A stretch of DNA of 64,000 nucleotides, taken from the NCBI RefSeq assembly GCF_045037415.1, contig NZ_CP173438.1; one strand, 5' to 3'. Origin of the DNA: Escherichia coli (GTDB taxonomy: Bacteria > Pseudomonadota > Gammaproteobacteria > Enterobacterales > Enterobacteriaceae). Below, in pieces: positions 30,901 through 33,900 of this stretch. Within the stretch, counting starts at the first letter, position 1. Each line of letters starts with the position of its first letter. Position numbers: made by a program.

Positions 30901-33900
30901 CTCTTGTTGCGAAAGCGCATTTTGCATTAAATGTTTTTTCAATGAGACGCCTCCATGATGACGACTCACTACACCACGCTTTTGCAACCACGCTAAATCT
31001 GTCCGAATCGTCTCTTTGGTAACAGAAAAATAGTTAGCTAAATCGCTAACACTGCACTCATCCTTGTTGCGAAGTAACCGGACAATATATTCACGACGGG
31101 TATCCCGATACATAAGTCTTCCTTTTTGATTTTATTATCACTAAAAAAGAAATTGTTATCGGGATTTTTATCAAGAAAAAAACAGGCAAGCAAAAACAAA
31201 CAAAAATATTATTCAGGCGAAACGATTCACCTAAAGATAATTAATATTTAGCTTACAAATAAAATAAAATTAATTATCCGTAACATATATAAATAACGTC
31301 AGGTAACGAAAGTAAGAGACTCCCCCTTCTTTCTTATTATTCACATCCAGCCCTAAACTCGCTCGGGCTGGCCCCGGTGCATTTTTTAAATACTCGCGAG
31401 AAATAGAGTTGATCGTCAAAACCGACATTGCGACCGACTGTGGCGATAGGCATCCGGGTGGTGCTCAAAAGCAGCTTCGCCTGACTGATGCGCTGGTCCT
31501 CGCGCCAGCTTAATACGCTAATCCCTAACTGCTGGCGGAACAAATGCGACAGACGCGACGGCGACAGGCAGACATGCTGTGCGACGCTGGCGATATCAAA
31601 ATTACTGTCTGCCAGGTGATCGCTGATGTACTGACAAGCCTCGCGTACCCGATTATCCATCGGCGGATGGAGCGACTCGTTAATCGCTTCCATGCGCCGC
31701 AGTAACAATTGCTCAAGCAGATTTATCGCCAGCAATTCCGAATAGCGCCCTTCCCCTTGTCCGGCATTAATGATTTGCCCAAACAGGTCGCTGAAATGCG
31801 GCTGGTGCGCTTCATCCGGGCGAAAGAAACCGGTATTGGCAAATATCGACGGCCAGTTAACCCATTCATGCCAGTAGGCGCGCGGACGAAAGTAAACCCA
31901 CTGGTGATACCATTCGTGAGCCTCCGGATGACGACCGTAGTGATGAATCTCTCCTGGCGGGAACAGCAAAATATCACCCGGTCGGCAGACAAATTCTCGT
32001 CCCTGGTTTTTCACTATGCCCTGACCGCGAATGGTGAGATTGAGAATATAACCTTTCATTCCCAGCGGTCGGTCGATAAAAAAATCGAGATAACCGTTGG
32101 CCTCAATCGGCGTTAAACCCGCCACCAGATGGGCGTTAAACGAGTATCCCGGCAGCAGGGGATCATTTTGCGCTTCAGCCATACTTTTCATACTCCCGCC
32201 ATTCAGAGAAGAAACCAATTGTCCATATTGCATCAGACATTGCCGTCACTGCGTCTTTTACTGGCTCTTCTCGCTGACCCAACCGGTAACCCCGCTTATT
32301 AAAAGCATTCTGTAACAAAGCGGGACCAAAGCCATGACAAAAACGCGTAATAAAAGTGTCTATAATCACGGCAGAAAAGTCCACATTGATTATTTGCACG
32401 GCGTCACACTTTGCTATGCCATAGCATTTTTATCCATAAGATTAGCGGATCCAGCCTGACGTTTTTTTTCGCAACTCTCTACTGTTTCTCCATACCCGTT
32501 TTTTTGGATGGAGTGAAACGATGGCGATTGCAATTGGCCTCGATTTTGGCAGTGATTCTGTGCGAGCTTTGGCGGTGGAATGCGCCACTGGTGAAGAGAT
32601 CGCCACCAGCGTAGAGTGGTATCCCCGTTGGCAGAACGGGCAATTTTGTGATGCCCCGAATAACCAGTTCCGTCATCATCCGCGTGACTACATTGAGTCA
32701 ATGGAAGCGGCGCTGAAAACTGTGCTTGCAGAGCTTTGCGTCGAACAGCGCGCAGCTGTGGTCGGGATTGGCGTTGACACAACCGGCTCGACGCCCGCAC
32801 CGATTGACGCCGACGGCAACGTGTTGGCGCTGCGCCCGGAGTTTGCCGAGAACCCGAACGCGATGTTCGTATTGTGGAAAGACCACACCGCGGTTGAAGA
32901 AGCGGAAGAGATTACCCGCTTATGTCACACGCCGGGCAACGTTGACTACTCCCGCAATATTGGCGGTATTTATTCCAGCGAATGGTTCTGGGCAAAAATC
33001 CTGCATGTAACTCGCCAGGACAACGCCGTGGCACAATCTGCCGCATCATGGATTGAGCTGTGCGACTGGGTGCCAGCTCTGCTTTCCGGTACCACCCGCC
33101 CGCAGGATATTCGTCGCGGACGTTGCAGCGCCGGGCATAAATCTCTGTGGCACGAAAGCTGGGGTGGCCTGCCGCCAGCCAGTTTCTTTGATGAGCTGGA
33201 CCCGATCCTCAATCGCCATTTGCCTTCCCCGCTGTTCACTGATACCTGGACTGCCGATATTCCGGTGGGCACCTTATGCCCGGAATGGGCGCAGCGTCTC
33301 GGCCTGCCTGAAAGCGTAGTGATTTCCGGCGGCGCGTTTGACTGCCATATGGGCGCAGTTGGCGCAGGCGCACAGCCTAACGCACTGGTAAAAGTTATCG
33401 GTACTTCCACCTGTGACATTCTGATTGCCGACAAACAGAGCGTTGGCGAGCGGGCAGTGAAAGGTATTTGCGGTCAGGTTGATGGCAGCGTGGTGCCTGG
33501 ATTTATCGGTCTGGAAGCAGGCCAATCGGCGTTTGGGGATATCTACGCCTGGTTTGGTCGCGTACTCGGCTGGCCGCTGGAACAGCTTGCCGCCCAGCAT
33601 CCGGAACTGAAAGAGCAAATCAACGCCAGCCAGAAACAACTGCTTCCGGCGCTGACCGAAGTATGGGCTCAAAATCCGTCTCTGGATCACCTACCGGTGG
33701 TGCTCGACTGGTTTAACGGCCGCCGCACACCGAACGCTAACCAACGCCTGAAAGGGGTGATTACCGATCTGAACCTCGCTACCGACGCTCCGCTGCTGTT
33801 CGGCGGTTTGATTGCTGCCACCGCCTTTGGCGCACGCGCAATCATGGAGTGCTTTACCGATCAGGGGATCGCCGTCAATAACGTGATGGCGCTGGGCGGC

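Follow-up and report, generated by a model that had tools for sequence, protein, structure and literature searches.

Exchange of gene cassettes within a fixed slot by homology of the flanking sequences is an already known kind of mechanism. Islets exchanged in this way through conserved flanking core genes lack mobility genes, occupy the same slot in several taxa and have flanks of the donor type; their composition is atypical, and divergence is raised at their borders. The accessory DNA found between araC and yabI in the 64,000-nucleotide stretch of Escherichia coli DNA analysed here (the window) resembles them in all these features. It departs from the usual exchanged islets in that one of its borders lies inside a coding gene, in the final 18 nt, with the result that the stop codon of this gene was swapped, and in that a decayed version in other E. 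coli genomes keeps the displaced original tail of this gene as a scar.

Another group of elements, the integrative islands that restore the target gene's 3′ end (tRNA/tmRNA islands and some prophages), is also comparable. The DNA in the window likewise replaces the 3′ end of a gene, and the two tail copies of the decayed version make up imperfect direct repeats of 25 nt, which occur only in other genomes. However, the intact island in the window has no integrase, tRNA target or repeats, and the likeness is one of outcome, not of mechanism.

The gene concerned encodes AraC. A difference of 11 residues in length between AraC of E. coli and that of Salmonella and Citrobacter has reportedly been present in the literature since the 1980s, and the sequences compared here confirm it (292 residues in E. 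coli K-12/B versus 281). The window AraC shares its 281-residue length and C-terminal end with the proteins of Salmonella arizonae, the Citrobacter freundii complex, Kluyvera, Kosakonia and Klebsiella. Its peculiarity is that this end sits inside E. coli, whereas E. albertii, cryptic Escherichia and about 80% of E. coli have 292 residues, and that it appears to be borne on imported DNA and not to come from a point mutation. Our literature search found no paper on the araC junction or on the island; the island is annotated in RefSeq genomes.

The araC junction and the adjoining island

In the window, araC occupies positions 31337..32182 (281 codons and a stop, counted from the annotated start MAEAQ...; all features described here lie on the minus strand unless stated otherwise). 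The ORF of 298 residues in the mechanical list starts at an ATG upstream of this annotated start. Over its full 846 nt the gene is collinear with the characterised araC of K-12, with 30 differences, 96.5% DNA identity and no indels (alignment and per-site comparison). It stands in the divergent position beside araBAD, with araB starting at 32521 on the opposite strand, and the RefSeq label for the identical coding sequence is AraC. The protein terminates with RAGCE, which is followed by tandem TAA TAA. In K-12, araC is 879 nt long and encodes 292 residues, and yabI is found 85 bp further on. The 846-nt coding sequence (WP_001295762.1), together with an identical junction, is also present in SK1144 and JJ1886.

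Differences from K-12 are absent from araC nt 760-828, and five of the 30 fall within nt 829-844, a clustering which is non-random (Fisher p = 1.3e-4; binomial 1.5e-4). The changes from K-12 to the window are CGT>AGG, GCC>GCT and GGT>GGA, all of them synonymous, and GAA>TAA at codon 282. Beyond ...TAATAAG the similarity to K-12 is gone, homology stopping 4 nt past the araC stop. The putative imported terminus at 31337..31354, consisting of codons 277-281 (AGG GCT GGA TGT GAA) and TAA, holds these five differences. The right-hand recombination breakpoint would lie in the interval 31355..31423; this corresponds to araC nt 760-828, and because it is identical to K-12 the exact crossover is not resolvable within it. 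It was originally predicted that the accessory DNA begins inside the araC 3′ end and supplies an alternative terminus, and this view is upheld by the breakpoint signature, by the displaced araC tail of the decayed-island genomes and by the association between the island and AraC length described below. The alignment with the K-12 araC 3′ end, suggested as a check, confirmed that K-12 reads past RAGCE to residue 292, and placed the change in a cluster at the island border. Re-coding of the terminal FRAGCE, also proposed, does not extend to the Phe codon 276, which is TTT in both K-12 and the window.

All five genes of the island are co-directional with araC. The first (29881..31113, 410 aa) encodes a DeoR-type HTH fused to a ribokinase-like PfkB kinase, which scores 298.8 bits against TIGR02152, 0.85 bits under the ribokinase cut-off of 299.65. 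It is followed by a gene for a DHDPS/NAL-family protein (28932..29855, 307 aa) and by genes which, according to RefSeq annotation of identical proteins, encode TctC (27924..28877), TctB (27438..27875) and TctA (25941..27428). The latter three (25941..28877) lie in one operon and constitute a tripartite tricarboxylate-type transporter; Pfam families PF03401, PF07331 and PF01970 (TctC, TctB and TctA, respectively) were found on the Klebsiella spallanzanii orthologues. None of the island proteins had an equivalog in NCBIfam. The GC content of the island is 44.4%, versus 53-56% in the flanking genes. According to the ORF list and RefSeq annotation, the window island contains only the five metabolic and transport genes, with no integrase, transposase or tRNA. 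No direct or inverted repeats of at least 9 nt (att sites, target duplications) are common to its two junctions, and the single 8-mer shared by them is within chance expectation.

On the left side, 183 bp (25758..25940) separate the tctA stop from the yabI start. A hairpin past tctA is followed there by a yabI upstream region of the Klebsiella type. The yabI gene (DedA family, 24993..25757) becomes K-12-like from 8 nt upstream of its ATG, and its first 107 nt are identical to K-12. Alignment of the left flank with K. spallanzanii gave a score of 43 (16 ± 2.2 for shuffles, 0/300 of which reach it); with K-12 the score was 19 versus 14.9 ± 2.2. As 18 of 300 shuffles reach this value of 19, the idea that the left flank of the island retains some of the K-12 araC tail was rejected.

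The 281-residue form of AraC

The araC loci were fetched from one genome per species, and 3′ ends were read in 55 enterobacterial loci. A length of 281 residues was the commonest, occurring in 37 of them, and in 36 of these 37 the protein ends with RAGCE and a stop. Hosts of this form include the Citrobacter freundii complex, Salmonella arizonae, Kluyvera, Kosakonia, Pseudocitrobacter, Yokenella and Cedecea. The 292-residue form with the K-12-type tail was encountered in E. albertii, in two other Escherichia species and in the C. amalonaticus/sedlakii group; the same form is encoded by two contigs that are filed as Photorhabdus and Xenorhabdus. Past the TAA, the DNA of Salmonella and the C. 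freundii complex reads aaagtgaatgatg...gtcataa; it is homologous to the 11 extra codons of K-12 and untranslated. The difference in length is therefore an alternation between TAA and GAA at codon 282. Outgroup comparison suggests that TAA is the older state and GAA the derived one, and the 11 extra residues of K-12 AraC would then represent a lineage-specific extension acquired through GAA in place of TAA.

The solved DNA-binding domain of AraC (PDB 2K9S) spans residues 175-281 exactly, thus the K-12 extension lies outside this folded domain. The window protein ends at the same residue as 2K9S does, and its DNA-binding domain, with two HTH motifs, is complete. Hence the description of araC as shortened is right only in relation to K-12 (281 versus 292 residues), and does not survive comparison with the usual enterobacterial length, with the TAA/GAA alternation at codon 282 and with the end of 2K9S. 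Judging from the sequences, the 281-residue protein appears to be the canonical enterobacterial form, not truncated in any functional sense. With 36 other loci naturally encoding AraC of this length, and with the 2K9S end, we infer that AraC of the window strain should work normally.

It follows that the "truncated" AraC of about 20% of complete E. coli (ST131, ST95, ST73, phylogroup F and others) would be a normal form, and a false alarm is thereby removed. It is the laboratory K-12 protein that has an unusual extension of 11 residues, which matters when araC alleles are compared or PBAD systems are moved between strains.

Distribution of the island and origin of the araC-yabI segment

Among 5426 complete E. 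coli genomes we recognised three configurations of the locus, which sum to 5400. A contiguous araC-yabI junction of the K-12 type, devoid of the island, is present in 4333 genomes, the window-type junction in 580, and a decayed island with a displaced K-12-type araC tail beside yabI in 487. The association with AraC length is strict among the genomes read individually: those with the island or its remnant have 281 residues and those without it 292, and the survey of C-terminal lengths that had been proposed as a check thus agreed with the prediction in every genome read. The intact island accompanies the 846-nt araC in SK1144, JJ1886 (ST131) and L1PEag1, whereas K-12 and two divergent island-free genomes have the 879-nt gene. 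Another genome, L004 ('E. coli SCPM-O-B-8794'), in which a third post-stop sequence follows a 281-residue araC, was set aside as a non-coli lineage; this post-stop sequence has no megablast match in complete E. coli genomes, and the L004 araC differs at many synonymous sites.

The decayed locus, exemplified by FDAARGOS_1257, W224N, UTI89, IAI39 and Nissle 1917, begins with an araC of 846 nt, whose imported end is of the same kind as in the window, followed by a diverged and partly deleted copy of the spacer. Toward yabI there follow the initial ~38 nt of the kinase gene, a fragment of IS630 and two hypothetical genes. Then come a displaced araC tail of the K-12 type, which starts at about codon 277 (GTGCCGGTTGTGAAGAAAAAGTGAATGATGTAGCCGTCAAGTTGTCATAA), a K-12-type intergenic region and yabI. 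The presence of this tail implies that an araC of the 292 type was interrupted near this codon, and the interrupting DNA would have brought its own araC end. The decayed spacer differs from that of the window at roughly 10% of positions and by indels, which makes two independent acquisitions in E. coli plausible. The older of them may be common to B2 lineages (UTI89, Nissle 1917) and phylogroup F (IAI39), the intact cassette having plausibly entered ST131 later. The locus is a lineage marker: genomes of the ST131 type have the cassette of five genes intact, and other B2/F genomes retain a decayed scar. The cassette could conceivably bear on the niche metabolism of ST131.

Both genes were located in 46 other enterobacterial loci, and in every one of them yabI comes directly after araC, hence the island is the derived condition. 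The closest homologues of its kinase outside E. coli (81%, 76% and 73% identity) come from Klebsiella spallanzanii, a metagenomic enterobacterial scaffold and a Klebsiella sp. MAG. In each of these three, the same five genes occur in the same order between a 281-residue araC and yabI. The same cassette therefore occupies the same slot in other taxa, and its flanks are homologous, their alignments exceeding those of shuffled sequences. In Citrobacter sp. NCU1 the module is located elsewhere, beside an IS1 fragment, and only about 95 nt of upstream sequence are in common. Two close Klebsiella hosts, whose AraB and AraC proteins are 97.5% and 98.9% identical, carry island alleles only 78-96% identical, from which it follows that the cassette was exchanged within the slot. 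Between E. coli and Klebsiella, protein identity is 63-89% for the island and 81-89% for the flanking core. With island proteins so distant, K. spallanzanii was dismissed as the direct donor. A donor whose island is nearly identical did not turn up, the nearest DeoR-PfkB protein outside E. coli being 81% identical, which points to either an unsampled source or an old acquisition.

The junction and its distribution were read directly from the genomes, as were the orthologous slot of other genera and the homology of the flanks. As to their cause, the segment that begins at araC codon 277 and ends shortly before the yabI start codon is, with high probability, xenologous and arrived by homologous recombination through araC and yabI. 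The direction of transfer and the recombination mechanism we infer as follows. The donor would have been an enterobacterium already possessing the five-gene module in its araC-yabI slot, and the recipient an E. coli lineage (ST131-like), which the DNA would have entered through these conserved flanking genes. One crossover would have taken place somewhere in araC nt 760-829, and the other between 8 nt upstream of the yabI ATG and yabI nt 108. The alternative terminus would then be the donor's own araC end, in the canonical 281-residue form (RAGCE, TAA), which would explain why the amino acids were kept while codons differ. Such an exchange is favoured by the succession at the right-hand border (no differences over nt 760-828, five in 16 nt, and then no homology), and by a left flank nearer to the Klebsiella-type than to the K-12 intergenic region. 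Both flanks of the island seem to resemble Klebsiella-type flanks more than those of K-12, the resemblance being marginal in the araC-proximal part. Transfer by flanking homology also agrees with the presence of the module in the araC-yabI slot of Klebsiella, with the lack of mobility genes and of repeats common to the two junctions, with the lower GC content of the island and with the exchange of alleles seen between close Klebsiella hosts. On the other hand, island and core proteins have diverged to a similar extent, which would equally suit long residence or vertical descent accompanied by losses, and the displaced K-12-type tail of the decayed genomes is not expected from a clean double crossover. 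The decayed version could have arisen from one homologous crossover and one illegitimate or short-homology join, or from a Campbell-type event.

The latter possibility, extended to the island as a whole, would mean that a circular element integrated site-specifically at the araC 3′ end, which served as its attachment site, and that a copy of this end carried by the element keeps araC intact, as is the case with islands at tRNA genes. In the 487 decayed genomes a version of the araC tail does stand on either side of the accessory DNA; the two, TTTAGGGCAGGTTGTGAATAATAAG and TTTTGTGCCGGTTGTGAAGAAAAAG, have the same orientation and match at 20 of 25 positions. However, the same duplication is accounted for by one homologous crossover combined with one illegitimate join, neither version of the island contains an integrase or recombinase gene (the only trace of mobility being the IS630 fragment), and the window-type island has no flanking repeat, its borders sharing no word of 9 nt or longer. 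Moreover, the module of Klebsiella lies downstream of an intact native araC with flanks of the native type, and we regard such integration as improbable. Still less credence can be given to a nonsense mutation (GAA>TAA) arising in situ in araC, with the island inserted just downstream by coincidence. Codon 282 is only one base away from K-12, and the same alternation of TAA and GAA is seen between island-free species, but a single mutation leaves unexplained the four further synonymous changes in the three preceding codons after 69 identical bases (p about 1e-4), the end of homology 4 nt past the stop, and the strict link among the genomes read between 281 residues and the island or its remnant, and between 292 residues and no island. 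This coincidence is therefore very improbable.

It might also be supposed that the island is ancestral in the enterobacterial slot and was lost from K-12-like E. coli and most genera, the 292-residue AraC being a by-product of deletion. In favour of this, divergence between E. coli and Klebsiella is similar for the island and flanking proteins, and in each host the GC content of the island leans toward that of the host itself (44.4% in E. coli and 48.5-52.1% in Klebsiella-like hosts). Nevertheless, the island-free araC-yabI intergenic regions of Escherichia, Salmonella, Citrobacter, Kluyvera and Kosakonia are collinear, with conserved blocks, an arrangement that independent deletions would not recreate. 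The K-12 tail is homologous to post-stop DNA of island-free Salmonella and Citrobacter, E. albertii and two other non-coli Escherichia have 292 residues, three non-coli Escherichia with a readable downstream region lack the island, and the decayed-island genomes still hold the 292-type tail. An ancestral island thus seems to us quite unlikely.

With homologous exchange through araC and yabI as the preferred reading, the locus would offer a clear example of an island border placed within the last codons of a gene. The junction itself appears to be an ordinary recombination scar and lineage marker which leaves the regulator undamaged, and its significance is modest. A more far-reaching proposal would regard the araC-yabI slot as a long-lived site of cross-genus exchange of one catabolic cassette, acquired by E. 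coli at least twice; the older copy would have decayed in ST95, ST73 and phylogroup F, leaving the interrupted 292-type araC tail there as a rare fossil, ST131 would be marked by the copy that stayed intact, and weak termination after the imported araC end could couple the cassette to araC transcription. Taken as a whole, this proposal is speculative, and we would rather doubt it than accept it.

The spacer and possible read-through from araC

The spacer between the araC stop and the first island gene (31114..31336) begins with the second in-frame TAA. The original prediction of a 220-bp AT-rich spacer was correct as to composition (26.5% GC), the exact length being 223 bp. Its further statement that there is no obvious terminator went too far, since two terminator-like hairpins are present in the spacer, one of them followed by a U-rich run. 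Directly past the araC stop there is a weak hairpin (31308..31333, GAAAGAAGGGGGAGUCUCUUACUUUC), with a folding energy of -9.0 kcal/mol and without a U-tract (RNA folding). It appears to be a degraded version of a hairpin of -21 kcal/mol predicted in decayed-island genomes; at the same position the Klebsiella loci have a hairpin of ~ -17.5 kcal/mol. The other hairpin (31212..31235), found by pattern scan and RNA folding, has a 10-bp stem (-11.7 kcal/mol) followed by UAAUAUUUUUGUUUGUUUUUG; it contains only 3 GC pairs, and the U-run begins 4-5 nt later. Neither is a textbook rho-independent terminator, so partial read-through of araC transcription into the island may occur, as the prediction had considered.

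An Rfam scan of 24800..32600 (E ≤ 1) gave no match in the spacer. The same scan returned naRNA4/REP matches between yabI and thiQ, which were sub-threshold only.

The two ends of the spacer differ in their conservation. Its araC-proximal part is only marginally similar to that of K. spallanzanii (score of 29 versus 20.8 ± 3.1, reached by 6 of 300 shuffles). The module-proximal block (31114..31210), which moves together with the module, is conserved in both K. spallanzanii (score of 86, versus 18 ± 2.5 for shuffles) and Citrobacter sp. NCU1 (score of 49), shuffles scoring about 18-19 ± 3 in these comparisons. This block presumably contains the promoter/operator of the island operon. Since the module brings along this conserved block and encodes an HTH regulator domain of its own, it would not need transcription from araC.

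The untranslated AraC extension and the displaced araC tail

In Salmonella enterica subsp. arizonae (L026:8844-8880), the TAA of araC is followed by ten further open codons (KVNDASVKMS), and this frame closes at the same TAA as is used by K-12 araC. Since the frame stays open up to the K-12 stop codon, a 'ghost' of the 11-residue extension is conserved there, though untranslated. In the Citrobacter freundii complex, an in-frame TGA lies inside the corresponding ghost.

A K-12-type tail is also met in a displaced position, in E. coli genomes bearing the decayed version of the island, which was found in 487 complete genomes of this species. 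This version is made up of the spacer between the araC stop and the kinase gene and about 38 nt of that gene, together with a fragment of IS630 and two genes annotated as hypothetical. The scar was located at L003:6232-6290 in strain FDAARGOS_1257, and the same layout was seen in UTI89 (L091), IAI39 (L092) and W224N (L084). The displaced tail (codon ~277 to the stop) adjoins yabI, and thus these genomes hold araC codons 277-281 in two copies.

Disruption of the window-type locus by an insertion sequence was observed in E. coli strain 21221 (L085:11239-13196), which carries ISKpn26; the insertion was accompanied by loss of the kinase gene, along with the 3' end of araC and a portion of the DHDPS gene, and the RefSeq AraC of this strain is a 312-aa protein with an altered C-terminus.

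Hairpins following araC and tctA

Each of the three Klebsiella-type loci carrying the module (L086, L093 and L094) bears a GC-rich hairpin immediately 3' of the araC stop, e.g. ggtgctgag...ctcagcacc, and a second one just 3' of the tctA stop (ggaccgcttc...gaagcggtcc). The window retains the post-tctA hairpin (cagaccatcc...ggatggtctg), and the post-araC hairpin is present there only in a weakened form.

araC in atypical assemblies

Two short contigs, assigned to Photorhabdus namnaonensis (6558 bp) and Xenorhabdus szentirmaii (6547 bp), both encode AraC, 99% identical to the window protein across residues 1-281 and ending in the K-12-type tail of the 292-aa form, with K-12-type DNA likewise downstream. 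Both contigs resemble DNA of E. coli or of a pBAD-type vector within non-Escherichia assemblies.

A record labelled 'Escherichia coli' SCPM-O-B-8794 (L004:8001-9300) encodes an AraC that is 99% identical to that of the window and stops at 281 aa, with many synonymous-site differences in the gene. The DNA beyond it is a third downstream sequence, unrelated to the others; yabI is absent within 8 kb of this araC, and Megablast gave no match to the sequence among complete E. coli genomes.

Further features of the window

Sub-threshold Rfam matches to naRNA4 (REP-element-like) occur on both strands at 24883-24999, on the downstream side of yabI toward thiQ, and overlap the yabI reading frame by a few bases at its end. 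A chromosomal toxin-antitoxin pair, ccdB (94 aa) and ccdA (77 aa), lies on the minus strand at 50693-51213, downstream of apaH; in the matching record of E. coli SK1144, CcdB/CcdA are annotated and placed between apaH and folA.
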